IMG/VR virus record: IMGVR_UViG_2778261087_000001
Coordinates: 1 to 30,286 of that record
Strand: one strand, 5' to 3'
DNA length: 30,286 nucleotides
Source of the DNA: a virus
Taxonomy: Duplodnaviria > Heunggongvirae > Uroviricota > Caudoviricetes
The notes under the pieces are model-generated. The model searched no databases. It saw only the letters and a program-made list of their open reading frames with translations, and was not told where the DNA came from. The translations under genes were made by a program, and so were the position numbers. This document shows positions 3,650 to 28,860 of this stretch, in pieces; the first letter of the stretch is position 1; every line of letters starts with the position of its first letter.

Positions 3650-4040
3650 CGTCTTTTCTCCCCGGAATTAACTCGCGTGGATTATCGGAACGGTGATAAA
3701 GCCATATACCAATTCGCACAGCGACAATTGACGACACAAATGCGCCAGCAGAGAAGACGATCCCTTTCTCGAAAGAGTCCTGCGTGATGGTAGGGATCAG
3801 GCTGGCTACACCGATAAGGATGGATGCTGTAGGTTTGTAAAAGAGAAGGCCGCAGAGGAAGCTGAGCATAGACAGGAGAACCCGGCGATGAATGGGATAC
3901 TCGATGGCTGAGGTAACAAAAATTACCGCCCCAGCCAAAGCTCCCAAAGCCACCTCTGGAGGAACCCCTGCTATCACCGCAGCAAGAGAACTCGCACTAA
4001 GCCACTGATTTAAAGACTCACTGGTTAGCTGAACTGACAT
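3636..4040 (-). CDS. holin-like membrane protein
   Basis: Multi-pass hydrophobic protein with charged C-terminus; track ORF begins at GTG 4049, but ATG at 4040 has GGTG 6 nt upstream and is preferred. Confidence 0.5.
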   Translation of the reverse strand: MSVQLTSESLNQWLSASSLAAVIAGVPPEVALGALAGAVIFVTSAIEYPIHRRVLLSMLSFLCGLLFYKPTASILIGVASLIPTITQDSFEKGIVFSAGAFVSSIVAVRIGIWLYHRSDNPRELIPGRKDDGNA

Positions 4041-4104
4041 AAAAAACACCGTTTAATGTGCATAAAGAATCCCCTTAGTTGGTTAGTTCATCATACACAA
4101 TAAA

Positions 4105-4160
4105 CCATATGTGGATTAAACTTGATCTGATAATTCTTAACGAAATTACCTTAAAGGTGA
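4105..4160 (+). promoter_or_regulatory. bipartite intergenic motif, copy A (CCATATGTGGAT ... ATTACCTTAAAGGTGA)
   Basis: CCATATGTGG at 4105-4114 and ATTACCTTAAAGGTGA at 4145-4160; same two elements recur at 6084-6150 and 24999-25077. Confidence 0.45.
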
Positions 4161-4261
4161 TATCATAAATATCCTTGTGTCATTTAAAATTAGAGTTAGG
4201 GCATGATAGCCAACATACAATATTTGCGTTTTCTCGCTGCATTCCTTGGTGATGACTTATC

Positions 4262-6083: not shown

Positions 6084-6150
6084 TATTACCTTAAAAACCA
6101 CATATGGATAGATAACCCATAAATACGAACAGATATTACCTTTCAGGTGA
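6084..6150 (+). promoter_or_regulatory. bipartite intergenic motif, copy B (TATTACC-N7-CCACATATGGAT ... TATTACCTTTCAGGTGA)
   Basis: TATTACC at 6084-6090, CCACATATGG at 6098-6107, TATTACCTTTCAGGTGA at 6134-6150; about 75 bp upstream of the plus-strand ORF at 6227. Confidence 0.5.
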
Positions 6151-6226
6151 TTCGCAAAACGTGCTGGATAGCAAACAAATTATTTGATACTGTATATTTA
6201 TACAGTTATTGCATGGAGAAGATAAG

Positions 6227-6484: not shown

Positions 6485-6796
6485 GGTTTGCAATTACCAA
6501 CTGGAGTGCTTATATTTACCTTTGCGGTAAATTTACATCGCACTCCTCTTGTGCCATAGTAATCGGGCACTGGCAAAATCCAGTGCCGGGATTGGCGTCC
6601 CGGGTTACTACAGAGGCACATATGCCGCATAAGCGGTTTTTTTATGTGTAAAGCGCACCTATTCTATGGTGGGCTGTGTGGGGGCACCGAAAGGTGCGCC
6701 GGGTCCTTTGTAGCCGGTTACGCCAACCCTGTACAGTTCACCACCAACCGATTGGCGTCGGTAGTGGTGATTAACCTAACTACAAAGGTGATCACT

Positions 6797-7547: not shown

Positions 7548-7564
7548 TATTACCTTAAAGGTAA
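7548..7564 (+). promoter_or_regulatory. TATTACCTTAAAGGTAA motif, copy D, abutting the RBS
   Basis: Near-perfect palindrome TTACCTTAAAGGTAA immediately 5' of AAGGAGG (7564-7570) and ATG 7577. Confidence 0.45.
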
Positions 7565-7576
7565 AGGAGGCGCGAT

Positions 7577-8986: not shown

Positions 8987-11461
8987 TTATTGCGGAGTGA
9001 CATCCTGAGGTCGCCACCAGTATGTCTGGTTAAACTCTTTCTTCGAACGTTGCTCCATTTTACGCAAATAGCCTGGTGAAAAATACTCCTGCATCTGGTT
9101 AAAGATCATATGATCGAGAGCCGCCTTTAAGTACCAGAGATTCGCACCTGGCATCAAACCTTTCCCCAGCTTCACCAGATCACCACCAGTCTGCTCACTC
9201 TTCCCTTCCACAGCATTTAACGGTATGCCCTGAGCAATCTTCACTACGTCATCAACCAGACCAGCTACCGGGCCAAGCATCGACGCCAGCGCGCCGCTTC
9301 CGTACCTAGTGTGATCTGACAATAAAAAGTCACCGTAAAGGCCAAGACCACCACCTTTCAGTAGAGCACCAAGCCAGAATTTTGCGGCATCTTCTCCTGT
9401 CATATCTCGAGGATTACGACCAGACGCAAGGTCGTTAAGTTGCTGCGACAAAGCGCCAAGAATGGTCGTACTGGCAATAAACGTCGCAATATATGCCGCA
9501 CGCCCACCAGCAGACGGCATCCCCATAGCGCGTGACCAGTGACGCATAACCACCGAGATAGGGAACGATTTAAACAGGAAAACACTTCTCGTTAATTCAC
9601 CTTTCCATGTTCCACGCTGAATACCAGAACCGGTTATCAGTTGCTCACGTGCTCCCGGTGTAATAACAGCCATATCAACTTCTTCAGTTACAGCACCGAG
9701 CAGTTTACGCATTGCCTCAAATTTCACGCGTTCAGGCTCACCAATATGTTTAACTGCTGAATCAGGGATACGCATAATGCTTTCCGGTGTCAGCATCGTA
9801 TTATTACCGTTCCCCCAGTCCTCCTGTTGCGCCAGCTTCCATACGCTCCAGTCTGTGTCAGTAATCCCTTTGCTTTTCAGGATACGAAAATCAGAGTCAT
9901 CGAGGCTACGAAGGTCTGGTGTCCGTGACACTACTTCTCCCAGGCTTCCCATCATAGTTACGCCATAGGCGCGCTTGTGCGCATCTGACCATGCTGTAAG
10001 CCCACTGGCACGCATTACCGCAGTTGCCGCCCAACGAGACACAGACGGCCCCATATTATCCATCGCCCAGCGGTTAACGCTGCCAAGTAGAGATTCCATC
10101 GCCAGACCAGCTCGGCGCGCCCGCGCAAGCTCAGTACGGTTCGTTGGGTCCATAGCTTCAAGCTGGTTGCGGAATAACTGGTTCATTGGAAGGTTGGTAA
10201 CCTTCGCAGACAGATACATGGTTCCAAGATCAGAGAACGATGACAGCAACGCGGATCCGAGTCTGCTGGCAACCAGCCAGTTGCGGATATTGTCAGACCA
10301 TCGCGCGATGTGCGGATTCGCTACAGGCTGTGTCTTTCCGGAAATAAAGTTGTACAGATTCTCTGTGTTGTTCGCCAGCCGCTCGACTTTACCGGTTTTA
10401 CTCGGGTTAGCTGTTGCCGTTTCTGCCTTCACCTGATCAAGAAGAGAGCGGAAAACATGATCGGGGTTTGGGCCATATGTTTCCACCAATGCAATATCTT
10501 TACTGATACCTTCAAGGTGACCGACCATGATTTCCCATAGAGAGCGATCGCCATAAAGTTGCTGATATTGCAGATAGGAATCTGCATCTTTGAAATGTAT
10601 CTGTCGTGATGCATTACCACGGTTAGCACGTGCGCCGGAAATTCGCATTCCGGTATCAGTAAGCTTATTCAGCCCACCAGTAGCGATCGTGTTATAAGCC
10701 TCTCCAAGAAATGCAGACAACTCGGCATCGTTCATCAGTTGTCCATCGGCTCGGGTATAATATTTGCGATCCAGCTTACCTATAACATCGCTAACCCATT
10801 TATCTTTTGATACCGCCCCAACCTTTTCCATAGAATGATGTTGAGGGATCCCCCAGTTTTCGAGATAGCCAATGTCCCCACCAGCATCATTAAACCGGCG
10901 GCGCAGCAGCTCTGTAACTTCTCTCCACGCCTTAGCACCTTTTCTTGCTTTAGCATTGCCAGTATTTTGCCCCCGCATTTCATATATCAGGTCACGTACG
11001 CCCGCTTCATCTTCAAACAGACCAAAAAAGCGAGGATCAACTGCTTCGAATGCCTCCTGCAATTGACTCAATGCATAATCACGGGTGGCTTTTGTTCTGG
11101 ATTCAACAGAGAGGAAATTCGATTTACCGTCTGCATTAAAAGCAATAGTACGGTTAAGAGCGCCAAGTTTCCCATCAGCCCCTTGATAGCTATTGATAAA
11201 TTTATCCAATCTCTGACGTGCGGCTATAGTGAGGGCCACACGACGTTTCTTTAATGCCGCTTCTCGCTGTAATTCTTCAGATGCCAATTGTGCTGCACGA
11301 TACAACCGTTCTGATTCGGAAAGTTGTCGCCACGACATCGGGTCATCACGAGCAATGGAGCGCATATTTCGATAAATGCGGTCTTCAATGTTCTGTATTT
11401 CTCGCGCCGTTAACGTGCGCTGCGCCGCCTGCTGGACCGCTTGTATACATTCCTGTCTCAT
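8987..11461 (-). CDS. internal virion / ejection protein (large, 824 aa)
   Basis: Third of three consecutive very large proteins between the tail tube genes and the tail fiber, the position of T7 gp15/gp16-like core proteins; hydrophobic Gly-rich C-terminal segment. Confidence 0.6.
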   Translation of the reverse strand: MRQECIQAVQQAAQRTLTAREIQNIEDRIYRNMRSIARDDPMSWRQLSESERLYRAAQLASEELQREAALKKRRVALTIAARQRLDKFINSYQGADGKLGALNRTIAFNADGKSNFLSVESRTKATRDYALSQLQEAFEAVDPRFFGLFEDEAGVRDLIYEMRGQNTGNAKARKGAKAWREVTELLRRRFNDAGGDIGYLENWGIPQHHSMEKVGAVSKDKWVSDVIGKLDRKYYTRADGQLMNDAELSAFLGEAYNTIATGGLNKLTDTGMRISGARANRGNASRQIHFKDADSYLQYQQLYGDRSLWEIMVGHLEGISKDIALVETYGPNPDHVFRSLLDQVKAETATANPSKTGKVERLANNTENLYNFISGKTQPVANPHIARWSDNIRNWLVASRLGSALLSSFSDLGTMYLSAKVTNLPMNQLFRNQLEAMDPTNRTELARARRAGLAMESLLGSVNRWAMDNMGPSVSRWAATAVMRASGLTAWSDAHKRAYGVTMMGSLGEVVSRTPDLRSLDDSDFRILKSKGITDTDWSVWKLAQQEDWGNGNNTMLTPESIMRIPDSAVKHIGEPERVKFEAMRKLLGAVTEEVDMAVITPGAREQLITGSGIQRGTWKGELTRSVFLFKSFPISVVMRHWSRAMGMPSAGGRAAYIATFIASTTILGALSQQLNDLASGRNPRDMTGEDAAKFWLGALLKGGGLGLYGDFLLSDHTRYGSGALASMLGPVAGLVDDVVKIAQGIPLNAVEGKSEQTGGDLVKLGKGLMPGANLWYLKAALDHMIFNQMQEYFSPGYLRKMEQRSKKEFNQTYWWRPQDVTPQ

Positions 11462-24998: not shown

Positions 24999-25077
24999 TA
25001 TTACCAATTTAACCATATATGATTTATTTATCGTAGATAGTTGACATTTAACGCACGAATTATTACCTTTCAGGTAG
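24999..25077 (+). promoter_or_regulatory. bipartite intergenic motif, copy C, with TTGACA; candidate promoter of the tRNA unit
   Basis: TATTACC (24999-25005), CCATATATGA (25013-25022), TTGACA (25041-25046), TATTACCTTTCAGGTAG (25061-25077). Confidence 0.45.
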
Positions 25078-25399
25078 GTAAAGGGTTCATTACGGTTACT
25101 AACCTGACTGGCTTGTCGTTAAATTGAACAGGTGGAGTGAGCTTTTATTTTGAGCAGTACGGCGTATGGCACATGCGCCGATAGCGGTCTGGATACGTTT
25201 AAGGGGCACCCTCCCTTGCTCGGGCAAACGAACCAGGTAGCCGGAATGTGCAAGTCGAGCGGTTTTATTCCGCGCACGGGGATTCACCATCCCGGCGATT
25301 CGGTGTGACTCCTCGGAAGATACGAGGGTACAACGATGAGAGCATTTATGGAGCCGCGACAAAGTGTGGCGCCTTAACAGGCTAAGTGCTCTCAGCGTT

Positions 25400-26145: not shown

Positions 26146-27621
26146 TTAAGCATAAGGGTCATAATCCGTTATGGCCCTTCCCTGCTGGCTTTGCTGTCCT
26201 GGTATATTTATGCGTTTCGAGACCGGGAAAGCAAACGTCAGCAATAGCGCATCGCCTTTCCCCGGCGAACGCCCAAGTCGCTCCTTGATATCTTCCTTCG
26301 GTTCGATAACGATTTTACCGTCCACGCGAACTTTGTACTCTGCCGTCGACAGGTCGTCCGCTGTTTCTTGGTCATCCAGCATGCCGCCGAGCCTCAGCCA
26401 TGTCTTGCATGAGTTGAACATCTCCCCACGCTTGTTGAGCATCTGCGGGTCAGTAGACGCGCCACCGAACGGAACAAGTTGCCATGTACGACCCCAGCCG
26501 TCACCGATTGACTTCAAACCGGTTCCGTAACCGAAGTCGATGAACACCGCGTCAGCCTGATACTGGTCTTCAAAGTCAGCGATACGCTTCGCCATAATCA
26601 GATCGTCGGTAGTCTTGTTGCCAGTCCACAGCACCTTACTGTGTAGCCCCTGCCGCAGGTATATCACAGCGTCATCAACACCGGAGTATGCCGGGTCAAC
26701 GCCGATTATCACCGGAGCATGTGCAACCTGCGCAGCGGTTACCACCCGTTTCATTGCCTCGTCAGTAAGACCGGTAGGGATAAACTGCAATTCAGATGCA
26801 TCAGGGAATATGCCACGCACACGGATTTTAACGAAGTCGCTGTCTTCCCCGTAGTCATCAACCCATTTCTGCAACTGCTGTTTGTTGGTACCTTCCACCG
26901 TCCGACTGTCAATCTGCGCAGTTTTCCAGCGGTGTTTATACTTGCGGAAACATTCACGGAAACGTCCGGTATTACGAGTCGGGTTTCCGAACGCCACCCA
27001 GATGATTTCGGTGTCTTCGTCCGTCAGCGCACCCTCTGCTACCTCCCACACCAGATCGGCAATGTTCGACGCTTCATCGAATACCACGATGATGCGTTTG
27101 CGCTCGTTGTGTAGTCCGGCGAATGCCTCAGTGTTGTGCTCAGACCATGGGATTGCGTCAGCTCGCCACCGCTTGTCGTGCCCAGGGTCATTGCTGTACA
27201 TCGCGGTAGCGGTACAGGTAAACCAGTCTTTCGTGATAGCAAGGTTTGACCACTTGATAATTTCCGGCCAGGTCTTCGTTCGTAGCTGGTTGTCGGTGTT
27301 GGCGGTCACCACGACCTTACAATCCTCGCAAGTGGACATGCCCCAGTTGATCAGCATTGAGATGAATGCGGATTTACCAATACCGTGACCAGAAGCGCGT
27401 GCCAGCATAAGCGGCTGATAGCGCGTCTCTGGATTCTGCAGGTGATCACGTATCTCTCGGAACGCATCGGCCTGCCACTGACGTGGACCGGTGGCATGTG
27501 CCAGTTCAGTACCCTCTTCCCCCCACGGGAACGCATAGAGGGCATAGCCAAGCGGATCGTGAGTGAACCCTGCAATATCCTCGATTAACTGCTCTTCAGG
27601 AGATAACGCTGTATCTGTCAC
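26146..27621 (-). CDS. terminase large subunit
   Basis: 491 aa; Walker A-like GHGIGKS in the N-terminal ATPase region, acidic nuclease-like C-terminal half; 4-nt overlap with the upstream small-terminase ORF. Confidence 0.85.
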   Translation of the reverse strand: MTDTALSPEEQLIEDIAGFTHDPLGYALYAFPWGEEGTELAHATGPRQWQADAFREIRDHLQNPETRYQPLMLARASGHGIGKSAFISMLINWGMSTCEDCKVVVTANTDNQLRTKTWPEIIKWSNLAITKDWFTCTATAMYSNDPGHDKRWRADAIPWSEHNTEAFAGLHNERKRIIVVFDEASNIADLVWEVAEGALTDEDTEIIWVAFGNPTRNTGRFRECFRKYKHRWKTAQIDSRTVEGTNKQQLQKWVDDYGEDSDFVKIRVRGIFPDASELQFIPTGLTDEAMKRVVTAAQVAHAPVIIGVDPAYSGVDDAVIYLRQGLHSKVLWTGNKTTDDLIMAKRIADFEDQYQADAVFIDFGYGTGLKSIGDGWGRTWQLVPFGGASTDPQMLNKRGEMFNSCKTWLRLGGMLDDQETADDLSTAEYKVRVDGKIVIEPKEDIKERLGRSPGKGDALLLTFAFPVSKRINIPGQQSQQGRAITDYDPYA

Positions 27622-28214
27622 TGATTGCCATCCTGACGTTCTTTCAGTCTCTTCCTGGCTGCCGCTATGCGATCAGCAATTGTCACATTCACATTAACAT
27701 CCAGGCGTTCTTTGAATGCGTTGACGTCGACGTGCTTACCAATCAGTTCGAGGTTCTTCACCTTGTCAGGCCATTTAATTTTTTTGAGGATTGTCTCTAT
27801 CGAATCCTCGTTCATGTTCATGATGGTCGATGACAGATCAAAGCCACTAAGCGTAGTGCGCCAGATTTTCGGCCACTCGCGGATTGGCTTAAGGCTCCCA
27901 TCGTCGTTGAGGATGTCGATCACGTCCATCTGGTCGATCTCCACCAGACGCATGAGAACGTAATCAGCACTGACGCGCATTCGTTTGTTGCGCTCCTCCA
28001 TCAGCTCGGCAATCCGTTTTTGAATGCGTTCATCGCGCATCATGACACTGGCTTTAACTGCCGCTGTATTTGGGGAGAATCCTGCGTTAATCGCTGCCTG
28101 AGTCTGGTTTTCAGGCGTTTTGATGTATGACTGGCAATAAGCCTCCTGCATTGCTGTTAGTGGCTTAAATTGCGTTGATTTGCGTTTATAGGTTTTAGGT
28201 TCAGCAGGCATCAT
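27618..28214 (-). CDS. terminase small subunit
   Basis: Basic helical protein immediately upstream of the large terminase; track ORF extends to TTG 28292, but ATG 28214 lies after an upstream terminator and direct repeats and is preferred. Confidence 0.6.
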   Translation of the reverse strand: MMPAEPKTYKRKSTQFKPLTAMQEAYCQSYIKTPENQTQAAINAGFSPNTAAVKASVMMRDERIQKRIAELMEERNKRMRVSADYVLMRLVEIDQMDVIDILNDDGSLKPIREWPKIWRTTLSGFDLSSTIMNMNEDSIETILKKIKWPDKVKNLELIGKHVDVNAFKERLDVNVNVTIADRIAAARKRLKERQDGNQ

Positions 28215-28221
28215 AACCACC

Positions 28222-28250
28222 GTGGTAATAGTTACCGTTGTGGTAATAGT
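28222..28250 (-). repeat. two 11-bp direct repeats (ACTATTACCAC on the minus strand) upstream of terS
   Basis: GTGGTAATAGT on the plus strand at 28222-28232 and 28240-28250; contain the same TATTACC core as the plus-strand motifs. Confidence 0.5.
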
Positions 28251-28251
28251 A

Positions 28252-28283
28252 CCATGCAAAATAAAGCCGCCATAGTTGGCGGC
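28252..28283 (-). terminator. rho-independent terminator between the early-type genes and the packaging operon
   Basis: Minus strand GCCGCC-AACTAT-GGCGGC followed by TTTATTTTG. Confidence 0.5.
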
Positions 28284-28288
28284 AGTAT

Positions 28289-28522
28289 TCAAAGTCCATC
28301 AAATTCATCGTAAAAACTCTCGTCAAGATACCCTTCCCATTTACCGCGAATGAAAATTACATCCTCGCCGCAAGGGTGCTGACTGTCGATAACTATATCC
28401 CTCCTGGCGCAACCATACTTATGCATGAGAAATTTAACCTCTTTCGGAAAATTTGCTGAGTTATCTCTCATATCTTCAAGGTCGTAGCGTATTTTTGGCA
28501 TAACACCTTCGTGACATGTCAC
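28289..28522 (-). CDS. hypothetical protein
   Basis: Track ORF with GTG start inside the palindrome; alternative ATG at 28501 (MPKIRYD...) has AAGGTG only about 2 nt upstream; start uncertain. Confidence 0.45.
   Translation of the reverse strand: MTCHEGVMPKIRYDLEDMRDNSANFPKEVKFLMHKYGCARRDIVIDSQHPCGEDVIFIRGKWEGYLDESFYDEFDGL
28511..28522. repeat. 12-bp perfect palindrome GTGACATGTCAC (copy 3 of 3)
   Basis: Exact palindrome overlapping the stop codon of the 113-aa gene and the 5' end of the next gene. Confidence 0.6.
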
Positions 28523-28860
28523 ACTATTAATTTCGTTTCATGCCAGCCTTTAGTCACCCAGCATTGCGAGTCACCATTACACGGGCATGAATTCACAGGA
28601 ACTCTCTCGCCGCACTTACCGCAACGTTTTCTGCTGATCGATTTCATACGCCCGCGCACGCGTGCATCATCCTGGCGGATCAGTAACGCTATATACTCAC
28701 CAAATTCGTAAGGCGCACGCCCGGGGCGACGCGTGGCACAGTTACGCTCCAGCATTTCAATTTCCTGAGCATCAAGCACAATCTCCAGCTTACGTACACC
28801 GGATTCAGCTTGTCTGGCTCTCTGAGCGGCTTTGCGCTCTGCTGCTGATTTAGCCATCAA
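28519..28860 (-). CDS. hypothetical protein with C-terminal zinc-ribbon-like Cys cluster
   Basis: 113 aa; charged helical N-terminal part and CGKCG...CPCNGDSQC cluster. Confidence 0.45.
   Translation of the reverse strand: MMAKSAAERKAAQRARQAESGVRKLEIVLDAQEIEMLERNCATRRPGRAPYEFGEYIALLIRQDDARVRGRMKSISRKRCGKCGERVPVNSCPCNGDSQCWVTKGWHETKLIV

Follow-up and report, generated by a model that had tools for sequence, protein, structure and literature searches.

Where does the small terminase gene (terS) of this phage begin, and what is the role of the DNA directly in front of it? The window, the whole stretch of DNA that we analysed, comprises 30,286 nucleotides, and sequence comparison identifies its source as an epsilon15/phiV10-like (Uetakevirus) prophage, a temperate podovirus. 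The region shares 97-98% identity with phiV10, TL-2011b and the O157 typing phages 9 and 10, and the terS region of the epsilon15-like phage SPC32H is 82.6% identical to the window. A reading frame of 224 aa for TerS opens at a TTG (28292-28290) that overlaps the TGA stop codon (28291-28289) of an upstream 77-aa ORF, and this frame runs through a hairpin and a pair of direct repeats before it reaches recognisable terminase sequence. A sequence-only reading of the locus had described the TTG/TGA overlap, an intrinsic terminator and two 11-bp direct repeats inside the ORF, and had proposed that the first 26 codons are probably not translated as TerS. We verified all of these elements on the minus strand, in the positions assigned to them, and the comparison of relatives agreed with the proposal. 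Since the terminator and the core of the repeat region are conserved across at least nine genera, the elements are more than chance. Our main reading, to which we assign a probability of roughly 70%, is that the 80 nt before terS are a non-coding control region of the terS-terL packaging operon, consisting of a terminator, a promoter and two operators (O1 and O2) that lead to a start codon at ATG 28211 (Table 1).

Table 1 Features of the terS upstream region in the window (positions count from the first nucleotide of the window)
Feature	Positions	Strand	Sequence and basis
terS, small terminase, 197 aa	27618..28211	-	Conserved ATG 28211; Pfam, phrog_51, synonymous variants
Shine-Dalgarno sequence	28217..28221	-	GGTGG; 5 nt before ATG 28211, 2 nt before ATG 28214
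27-codon "N-terminal extension" of the 224-aa ORF, judged non-coding	28212..28292	-	Comparison of relatives
Operator O1 (putative)	28231..28247	-	ATTACC-ACAAC-GGTAAC; 17-bp palindrome, one mismatch to ATTACC-N5-GGTAAT
Operator O2 (putative), weaker	28213..28229	-	ATTACC-ACGGT-GGTTAT; one mismatch; overlaps Shine-Dalgarno sequence and ATG 28214
Putative extended -10 (TGn + TACTAT) of the terS operon	28246..28254	-	TGGTACTAT; conserved across relatives
Terminator T-tract	28257..28265	-	TTTATTTTG; TTT(A/G)TTTTG common to relatives with the hairpin
Intrinsic-terminator hairpin	28266..28283	-	GCCGCCAACTATGGCGGC, GCCGCC-AACTAT-GGCGGC; top-scoring in terminator scan

The start codon was resolved by comparison. 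Of the two adjacent ATG codons, 28214 and 28211, the relatives conserve the second. The sequence-only reading had preferred ATG 28214; several close relatives have ACG or ATT in its place, and in other genera most relatives have a codon other than ATG there, such as ACA or ACC. The GGTGG sequence keeps its 5-nt spacing to the conserved ATG in most relatives, and phage Tyrion annotates a ribosome-binding site there. In five phages, a conserved N-terminus (MPAEPK..KRKSTQ) begins at the ATG equivalent to 28211. Profile searches with Pfam and PHROG found nothing in the extension, and the matches begin after it: Terminase_2 (PF03592) covers residues 45-200 of the long form (1.4e-29; 103.9 bits against a gathering cut-off of 26.1), and phrog_51 matches from residue 29 (8e-58). 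The 27 codons themselves read LNTAANYGGFILHGTITTTVTITTVVM. They include a peptide stretch, NTAANYGGFILHGTITTTVTITTVV, that is expected only if the long form is made.

The pattern of variation separates the extension from the rest of the gene. Among 57 haplotypes from 78 close loci, all 74 codon variants in the body downstream of 28211 were synonymous, with third positions accounting for 65 of 69 variable sites, although the zero non-synonymous count is partly by construction, the loci having been chosen by identity to the 197-aa protein; the extension in the same set carried 12 non-synonymous and 4 synonymous variants. Free of this selection bias are the five-phage N-terminus, the comparisons of diverged loci and the 13 members of a 90% protein cluster, in which the extension varies in 11-12 of 27 columns and gains a 5-aa insertion against 9 of 197 variable columns in the body. 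The extension is interrupted by an in-frame TAA in the Klebsiella phage and by a TAG in BUCT554, and relatives carry indels of 1-2 nt within it. The gap between O1 and O2 is 1, 2 or 3 nt, and therefore the reading frame is not kept. Alignment with TerS homologs, the comparison named by the sequence-only reading, thus revealed no protein-level conservation of the extension. The short form is annotated in typing phage 9, TL-2011b, Tyrion, BUCT554 and epsilon15; a 224-aa TerS stands in RefSeq for phiV10 (YP_512255.2) and among PGAP proteins (e.g. WP_064262073.1), and 198-aa and 197-aa forms coexist in the databases. Collectively, these comparisons indicate that TerS most likely starts at ATG 28211 and that the long reading frame is most likely an annotation artefact.

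We then considered what the non-coding stretch contains. Its upstream part is a hairpin that begins 6 nt past the upstream TGA, with 7 bp counting the flanking A-U pair (6 G-C pairs) and a 4-nt loop. The predicted fold of -13.8 kcal/mol (z = -5.1) was equalled by 0 of 200 shuffles. The hairpin is rich in G+C, lies past a stop codon on the transcribed strand and runs straight into a U-tract, as intrinsic terminators do, and the orthologous stem-loop of epsilon15 (NC_004775.2, 39646-39672) is annotated as a rho-independent terminator. Among 14 diverged loci, the terminator is present in 11 and missing in three; its core stem is invariant, and two G-U-compatible changes in Buttiauxella are the only ones observed, with no real covariation. 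These observations support a terminator-type structure that probably closes the early-right transcription unit upstream.

Between this terminator and terS lie the two exact 11-nt direct repeats (ACTATTACCAC; 28250-28240 and 28232-28222 on the minus strand, 18 nt apart), both crossed by the 224-aa ORF. The sequence-only reading had seen in the region a possible control point. The repeats are indeed present, but the conserved units are instead two tandem 17-bp palindromes of the form ATTACC-N5-GGTAAT, and the epsilon15 ortholog of one of them is annotated as repressor-binding. On this comparison, the direct repeats are a lineage-specific by-product, because the left halves and flanks of O1 and O2 happen to be identical in the phiV10 lineage. 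In epsilon15 the two copies agree at 8 of 11 positions, and the exact 11-nt repeat is therefore specific to the phiV10 lineage.

The operator consensus was drawn from seven annotated epsilon15 sites, all of which read ATTACC-N5-GGTAAT, and a motif search of the window returned eight matches where 0.79 were expected. O1 aligns with, and is orthologous to, the epsilon15 RefSeq feature "protein_bind repressor" (12-27) beside the terminator. Across the 14 loci, the half-sites hardly vary (minor cells: 3 of 168) and the spacer is free (22 of 70), which is the signature of a site bound by a dimer; close relatives display the same constrained half-sites and free spacer. O2 is recognisable in 11 of the 14 diverged loci, with one or two mismatches and at 18-20 bp from O1, and is degenerate in the Klebsiella phage, Scandinavium and Kluyvera loci. 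A second recurrent motif, CATATGTGGTTT, occurs about 30 nt downstream of the late operators and is weakly enriched (seven matches against 2.84 expected; 4 of 100 shuffles as high). The terS sequence GGTGGTTAT was rejected as a copy of it on account of its spacing and a mismatched left half.

Immediately upstream of O1 lies a promoter-like element. In the pattern TGnTAsTAT, 14 of 14 loci, drawn from at least nine genera, agree without exception in the columns T, G, T, A, T, A and T, while n is G, T or A and the third base of the hexamer is C or G; the element is retained in the loci without the terminator. It presents a TG at -15/-14, one intervening base and a hexamer with A at -11 and T at -7, the arrangement of an extended -10. 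The last two nucleotides of the element are shared with O1, and the -10 of the PL-like promoter of phiV10 (TTGACA-17-AATTAT), which was called by a promoter scan, overlaps an operator in the same register. The terS hexamer, TACTAT, agrees with the consensus at four of six positions and is not accompanied by a -35. Because of this, the consensus promoter scan, which requires a -35, called no -35/-10 promoter between 27400 and 29400, and the extended -10 was recognised solely through comparison of relatives. We infer from its conservation that TGGTACTAT has promoter activity, with a predicted transcription start near 28239 that is derived from spacing only.

The arrangement has a close precedent in epsilon15, whose orthologous region aligns base for base with that of the window. 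It likewise contains a terminator, TGnTACTAT, ATTACC-N5-GGTAAT, a weaker second palindrome, GGTGG and an ATG (terS start at 47), and the palindromic motif recurs elsewhere in its genome. The epsilon15 record marks O1 only, and neither O2 nor the promoter. The two loci differ in that epsilon15 has a single ATG (ACAATG) where the window has ATGATG, and in that the window carries the extra 77-aa gene before the terminator. By this comparison, the stretch upstream of terS would be ordinary non-coding control DNA of a kind already annotated in epsilon15.

To which protein do O1 and O2 belong? The window ends before the immunity region and contains no rep, and the repressor Rep with its flanking motifs was read in relatives. 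In epsilon15, phiV10, TL-2011b, BUCT554, the Klebsiella phage and eight further genomes, the motif flanks rep and precedes the replication, terS and portal operons; where the locus extends that far, the tail-fibre and lysis operons are preceded by it as well. Related genomes carry 9-18 copies, at promoters throughout, and the repressor gene has two to three of them on either flank. Among IMG/VR and phage loci sharing the TerS of the window, every one of sufficient length (54 of 54) encodes a phiV10-type Rep (98-100% identity). The diverged loci of sufficient length, 12 in number, likewise all encode a Rep homolog flanked by the motif, and the N-terminal helix (N/T)LV(N/S)RW is conserved across them. 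The phiV10 Rep matches the SPC32H repressor structure (PDB 5D50, 5D50_A) with E = 4e-42. SPC32H Rep is described as binding palindromic sites as a tetramer (PMC9638917), and its tetramerization domain as being of the looping type (PMC9986798). When Rep is overexpressed in ZX5, a close relative, holin and endolysin mRNA falls by 99.97-99.99% (PMC9782041). The likeliest binder of O1 and O2 would thus be the phage Rep, a helix-turn-helix repressor homologous to the tetrameric SPC32H Rep, an attribution based on GenBank annotation, genomic position and secondary citations. The Rep of this phage group is thereby a homolog of that in the SPC32H Rep/Ant immunity system (PDB 5D50, 5D4Z), and its binding at the terS sites, in a window that itself lacks rep, is putative.

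The Rep proteins of phiV10 and epsilon15 share 42% identity, yet their motif type is identical. No heteroimmune relative was present among those found; in all of them the Rep N-terminal domain is related and the half-sites are identical, and a Rep-operator covariation test is therefore without power. A gp49-like or a Cro-like protein could alternatively bind the same sites. The former is a 113-aa, Cys-rich "transcriptional regulator" encoded at 28519-28860 (phrog_536, 3.3e-54), which lies directly upstream of terS in every relative, at 60-100% identity. Searches of NCBIfam and Pfam returned zero matches for two small upstream proteins.

What the sequences show directly is the set of elements, the way in which these are conserved, the non-coding character of the extension and the conserved start; from this we infer the following sequence of events, in which promoter activity, start site and Rep binding are predicted. 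The intrinsic terminator would end the early-right transcription unit, after which the extended -10-type promoter would initiate a new transcript near 28239. O1 would span about -8 to +9 and O2 about +11 to +27, the latter taking in the Shine-Dalgarno sequence and ATG 28214, and translation of terS would begin at ATG 28211. In the lysogen, Rep occupying O1 and O2 would keep the terS promoter from initiating, and transcripts escaping the terminator could meet it as a roadblock as well. Upon inactivation of Rep by its antirepressor, the packaging operon would be expressed. One observation fits this model less well: by sequence reading, the lysis-promoter palindrome is separated by about 26 nt from the predicted -35 and lies upstream of it, a position that is not typical of simple occlusion. 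The sequence-only reading had suspected a late-operon control point acting through terminator read-through or activators; control of the packaging operon is retained in our model, whereas antitermination or read-through is not, the terminator lying upstream of the promoter-like element.

The layout resembles lambda OR/OL with PR/PL, sharing a 17-bp palindromic operator over the -10 and +1 of a sigma-70 promoter (here a predicted one), tandem pairs of sites and a helix-turn-helix repressor. Lambda CI operators, however, stand only at two early promoters, with late genes silenced indirectly, whereas here the sites are also found before the packaging, portal, tail-fibre and lysis operons. A broader model, which we consider doubtful at present, would have the immunity repressor silence every operon directly through about 10-18 dispersed operators; at terS, a DNA block, a roadblock and an RNA hairpin on read-through transcripts would then act together, and TerS would be made only from the derepressed local promoter. 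Direct, genome-wide silencing of the lysogen occurs in mycobacteriophages L5 and Bxb1, with their "stoperators", and in Streptomyces phage phiC31, with its conserved inverted repeats; many copies of the repressor site lie in short intergenic regions of these phages, including before late genes. The L5 sites are asymmetric, orientation-dependent 13-mers that act on elongation. Those described here are, in contrast, symmetric 17-mers located mostly at promoters, about 10-18 per genome, and a roadblock role is putative. If the broader model is true, epsilon15/phiV10-like podoviruses would be the enterobacterial counterpart of the mycobacteriophage stoperator network.

Among the competing explanations, the one that survives best, although we judge it unlikely, holds that the palindromes are activator sites for late genes (for example, for the gp49-like protein) or that terS expression depends on early-right transcripts passing the terminator in a regulated way. 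The conserved position of the gp49-like regulator, the lysis-promoter palindrome (roughly -70 from the predicted start, which suits an activator) and the weak terS -10 without a -35, as in an activator-dependent promoter, are all compatible with activation. The terS palindromes, however, lie downstream of the -10 and over the start site and ribosome-binding site, which is a repressing position; the repressor gene has two to three copies of the motif on either flank, a copy also overlaps the PL-like -10, and the epsilon15 curators attributed the sites to the repressor. As for read-through, three of 14 relatives lack the terminator, which stands ahead of the promoter-like element, and regulated read-through therefore cannot be the conserved mechanism.

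Improbable, in our estimation, is a mechanism at the RNA level, in which read-through transcripts fold the tandem palindromes into a long hairpin that hides the Shine-Dalgarno sequence and both AUGs, so that only promoter-proximal transcripts are translated. The 63-nt read-through leader is predicted to fold at -20.7 kcal/mol (z -3.4; equalled by 0 of 200 shuffles), pairing GGUGG and both AUGs, while the leader from the predicted start reaches only -9.3 kcal/mol (z -1.3), and similar nested folds are predicted in about seven of 11 relatives. Such a fold is, however, an automatic outcome of two adjacent DNA palindromes. Its topology and stability are not conserved (z from +0.3 to -4.4), it is missing in the Klebsiella phage and the Superficieibacter locus, and an Rfam search found nothing at E <= 1. 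The paired positions are the invariant half-sites, and therefore no covariation can back an RNA structure.

In headful phages, the pac site often lies in or beside terS, and the sequence-only reading had raised the possibility of a packaging-related site. The repeats would then be TerS recognition boxes of pac, like pacL upstream of SPP1 gene 1, which we consider very improbable. The TerS of the window belongs to Terminase_2 (PF03592), the family of the SPP1/SF6 G1P proteins (Pfam; HHpred note in the epsilon15 record), and the pac site of this phage group is unannotated in the records examined; the literature checked contained no packaging information on the group. SPP1 pac, whose pacL and pacR surround the 5' end of gene 1, also shares with this locus the repeated boxes at the terS promoter and 5' end. 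The motif, however, is not unique, with eight matches in the 30-kb window, recurrence at every operon start in relatives and copies around the repressor gene, and O2 is dispensable in three relatives. Unlike those of SPP1, the boxes here, known from sequence, are thus copies of a genome-wide motif. Database records begin at the terS region by convention.

Hardly credible is a genuine 224-aa isoform, made at least partly from TTG 28292 by translational coupling to the upstream ORF, given that, despite a TTG/TGA overlap of the coupling type, a frame that is open in the window and in close relatives, the 675-nt form annotated by phiV10 RefSeq and PGAP, and the frequency of the 224-aa form in databases, this reading appears largely refuted already by the comparison with relatives: the extension varies in a neutral-like manner and has stops, frame-breaking indels and no profile match, a terminator hairpin and T-tract would lie inside the coding sequence, epsilon15 and Tyrion have (by sequence reading) ATT at the TTG position right after an in-frame TAA, and the upstream 77-aa ORF is missing in phiV10 and typing phage 9.

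In summary, our comparison favours a non-coding control region ahead of the terS-terL operon, with TerS most likely starting at ATG 28211. This is known biology, and the finding raises no new question by itself; its chief practical value lies in annotation, namely the correction of the terS start codon to 28211. The orthologous control module, in which an extended -10-like element is followed by O1 and then by a weaker O2 across the ribosome-binding site, is conserved in at least nine enterobacterial genera, and may thereby offer a clean target for phage engineering (for example, of phiV10 reporter phages) or for studies of late-operon silencing by Rep.

The genes around terS, the small-terminase gene, lie on the minus strand of the window, and the surrounding 1.3 kb is 97-98% identical to the E. 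coli Uetakevirus phages phiV10, TL-2011b, O157 typing phages 9 and 10, ZX5 and PAS61, and 79-86% identical to Salmonella phage epsilon15, SPN1S, SPC32H and Enterobacter phage Tyrion. The ORF at 27618-28292 carries a Pfam Terminase_2 domain (1.4e-29) beginning only at residue 45, and the large terminase gene is the next downstream. The gp49-like protein has a Cys-rich C-terminus (CGKCG...CPCNGDSQC), and every relative encodes it immediately ahead of terS (60-100% identity); it had no match in Pfam or NCBIfam and is a candidate late regulator. The 77-aa ORF represents an indel, present in the window and roughly one third of close relatives and missing from phiV10, typing phage 9 and TL-2011b, where only its last ~25 nt remain.

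Positions of features around terS and of related motifs (window coordinates unless a locus is named; L005, epsilon15; L006, phiV10; L088, Klebsiella phage ST512-KPC3phi13.3; L089, a further relative)
Feature	Position	Strand	Sequence or context
113-aa "transcriptional regulator" (phrog_536, homolog of epsilon15 gp49)	28519-28860	-	upstream of terS
77-aa protein, unknown function (phrog_1541)	28289-28522	-	between regulator gene and terminator
Terminator	28283-28266		GCCGCCAACTATGGCGGC, then TTTATTTTG
Direct repeats, two exact 11-nt copies	28250-28240, 28232-28222		
O1, putative operator	28247-28231	-	ATTACC-ACAAC-GGTAAC
O2, putative operator	28229-28213	-	ATTACC-ACGGT-GGTTAT
Further palindrome copies, 1-2 mismatches	25062-25078, 7549-7565, 6515-6531, 6135-6151, 4145-4161		intergenic, ahead of portal, tail-fibre/divergent, lysis operons
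Further palindrome copy, 1-2 mismatches	3681-3697		inside an ORF
Second motif	6095-6106, 4102-4117, 25010-25025; L006 24735-24752, 20921-20937		CATATGTGGTTT
Operator over ribosome-binding site	L006 35131-35147; L005 35968-35984; L088 4737-4753; L089 6011-6027		ATTACCTTAGAGGTAAAtcATG
Terminator-like hairpin and T-run	28095-28117	+	TGCCTGAGTCTGGTTTTCAGGCG TTTTGATG; inside terS, antisense

The sequence-only reading had noted that the long ORF opens at a TTG overlapping the upstream stop, and had doubted that the codons ahead of ATG 28214 are translated. TTG 28292 does share bases with the TGA of the upstream ORF, and variation, reading frame, profiles and the conserved N-terminus agree that the 27-codon extension is not translated as TerS. 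Among 80 IMG/VR loci encoding the identical 197-aa protein, together with phage records, 78 loci were usable and gave 57 haplotypes; downstream of ATG 28211 these held 74 codon variants, all synonymous, with 65 of 69 variable sites at third codon positions, a count biased by the choice of loci for identity to that protein. The 27 upstream codons held 16 variants, of which 12 were non-synonymous; second positions accounted for half of the variable sites. The same contrast was obtained with the 13 members of the 90%-identity protein cluster, which were not chosen by 197-aa identity: 11-12 of 27 extension columns vary, versus 9 of 197 in the body, and a 5-residue insertion lies within the extension. 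Alignment with TerS homologs, close and distant, likewise revealed no conservation of the extension at the protein level. An in-frame TAA interrupts it in Klebsiella phage ST512-KPC3phi13.3, BUCT554 carries a 2-nt indel besides an in-frame TAG, and in the aligned sequences of epsilon15 and Tyrion an ATT occupies the position of the TTG, right after an in-frame TAA. PHROG and Pfam profiles align to the long form only from residue 29 or 45, and the extension alone matched none of them. Translation of the long form is thus essentially excluded by variants, in-frame stops, indels and profile silence.

GGTGG (28221-28217) is followed after 2 and 5 nt by the neighbouring ATGs 28214 and 28211, respectively. 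The former had been preferred from the sequence alone; three close haplotypes have ACG or ATT there, and most other-genus relatives have ACA, ACC or some other non-ATG codon, whereas MPAEPK..KRKSTQ(F/Y)KPLT is conserved from the equivalent of 28211 in every relative. On this comparative evidence, terS therefore starts at ATG 28211, one codon downstream. The 675-nt form is annotated in the phiV10 RefSeq record and by PGAP, the short form in typing phage 9, TL-2011b, Tyrion, BUCT554 and epsilon15, and three TerS lengths are all common in protein databases; the alignments demonstrate that the 224-aa TerS, though widely propagated, is called from the wrong start. A mis-call in the opposite direction was seen in ST512-KPC3phi13.3, whose terS (9073-9657) has its annotated start at an internal Met (MQEAY..., 9124), with the conserved ATG and MPKDPKRKSTQYKP lying 51 nt upstream of that codon.

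The terminator was recovered as the top terminator-like site of the region in a terminator scan, and its hairpin, GCCGCCAACTATGGCGGC, folds at -13.8 kcal/mol (z = -5.1). The scan also called the plus-strand hairpin inside terS, which may be due to chance. Both exact repeats were present as proposed. The epsilon15 RefSeq record places a rho-independent terminator at its extreme end, a "protein_bind, repressor, lysogeny" feature at 12-27 and terS from an ATG at 47; all seven epsilon15 sites annotated as repressor-binding are of the form ATTACC-N5-GGTAAT. Aligned base for base with this annotated stretch, the repeat region holds two such 17-mers, O1 and O2. The window contains 8 matches to the palindrome pattern versus 0.79 expected (0 of 100 shuffles reached 8), and five of the six further sites are intergenic, ahead of late operons, at positions syntenic with phiV10 and epsilon15 sites. 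Across 14 diverged loci, the 12 half-site columns of O1 show 3 minority bases in 168 cells and the 5 spacer columns 22 in 70, and microvariation among close relatives falls in the spacers, a single base between O1 and O2, and positions outside the sites. The epsilon15 repeat copies match at only 8 of 11 positions. With half-sites fixed and spacers variable, comparison indicates that the exact 11-nt repeat is a phiV10-lineage feature and that the conserved unit is the palindrome. O1-O2 spacing is 18, 19 or 20 bp (14 loci, at least nine genera), which does not preserve one reading frame through the extension, and O2 is degenerate in three relatives. A second recurrent motif, CATATGTGGTTT, lies ~28-31 nt downstream of late-operon operators, within the -35/spacer portion of predicted promoters, and takes a palindromic form, AACCATATATGGTT, at the phiV10 lysis promoter; it is weakly enriched (7 matches versus 2.84 expected; 4 of 100 shuffles as high) and may be the site of another regulator.

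Directly upstream of O1, TGnTA(C/G)TAT occurs in 14 of 14 diverged loci, including three without the terminator, with its T, G, T, A, T, A and T columns invariant and n being G, T or A. With TG at -15/-14, an A at -11 and a T at -7, the element has the pattern of an extended -10 promoter, suggesting promoter activity, and the last two hexamer bases are the first two of O1. In the phiV10 early-left promoter called by promoter scan, TTGACA-17-AATTAT, the -10 and the operator share the same two bases in the same register; the consensus scan called nothing at terS because there is no -35. At usual spacing, transcription would start near 28239, and O1 (~-8 to +9) and O2 (~+11 to +27) would occupy repressing positions.

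A syntenic survey of epsilon15, phiV10, TL-2011b, BUCT554, the Klebsiella phage and eight prophages of other genera found two or three motif copies at the early-left promoter downstream of the repressor gene, with a recurring 62-bp spacing; one to three in the interval separating the repressor gene from the divergent early-right genes; a pair 62 bp apart before the gene following the replication genes; a pair ahead of terS; and a single copy ahead of the portal operon. In complete genomes, the motif also precedes the tail-fibre and lysis operons and int. The 62-bp centre-to-centre spacing at the early-left promoter and after the replication genes is kept across genera (L005, L006, L007, L088, L089, L091-L100), which fits a tetrameric, looping repressor. 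The ATTACCTTAGAGGTAAAtcATG operator, whose partner is always 62 bp upstream, overlaps a ribosome-binding site in the same layout as O2 at terS. Every locus extending far enough encodes a homolog of the epsilon15/phiV10 repressor Rep, with overall identity of only 41-75% and a conserved N-terminal HTH region, including (N/T)LV(N/S)RW. phiV10 Rep matches the SPC32H repressor (PDB 5D50) at E = 4e-42; papers citing the work on the latter report that it binds palindromic sites as a tetramer (PMC9638917) and that its tetramerization domain belongs to a type linked to DNA looping (PMC9986798). In ZX5, 97.5% identical in this region, Rep overexpression lowered holin and endolysin mRNA by 99.97-99.99% (PMC9782041). 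No heteroimmune relative allowing a Rep-operator covariation test was found among the relatives, for which reason Rep is named by inference, as the most likely binder of O1 and O2.

We propose that the terminator would end early-right transcripts and that the packaging operon would be driven from a weak, extended -10 promoter of its own. Rep bound at O1 and O2 would, in the lysogen, prevent initiation and could block polymerases leaking past the terminator; once the antirepressor inactivates Rep, the operon would be transcribed and TerS translated from ATG 28211 with GGTGG as Shine-Dalgarno sequence. Activator or antitermination control, suggested earlier, could draw on the conserved gp49-like regulator next door and on the motif lying upstream of the predicted -35 at the lysis promoter, but has a low probability: the site positions at terS do not fit an activator, and neither the order of terminator then promoter nor the absence of the terminator from three relatives fits antitermination. 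For read-through transcripts of the window, an RNA hairpin that hides the Shine-Dalgarno sequence is predicted (-20.7 kcal/mol, z -3.4), although the prediction is inconsistent among relatives and such a fold is an automatic by-product of DNA palindromes. The dispersal of the motif makes it unlikely that the repeats form a packaging-related (pac) site.

In epsilon15, annotation already covered the orthologous terminator, repressor site and ATG start, and structural work exists on the Rep/Ant (antirepressor) system of a sister phage. The additions made here are modest: a second putative operator over the ribosome-binding site, an invariant extended -10 element, and the mis-call of the 224-aa TerS. 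As in lambda-type overlap, the operator lies over the promoter, whereas here late operons carry operators too. Mycobacteriophage L5 and phiC31 have dispersed repressor sites, which the operators at late operons here resemble.
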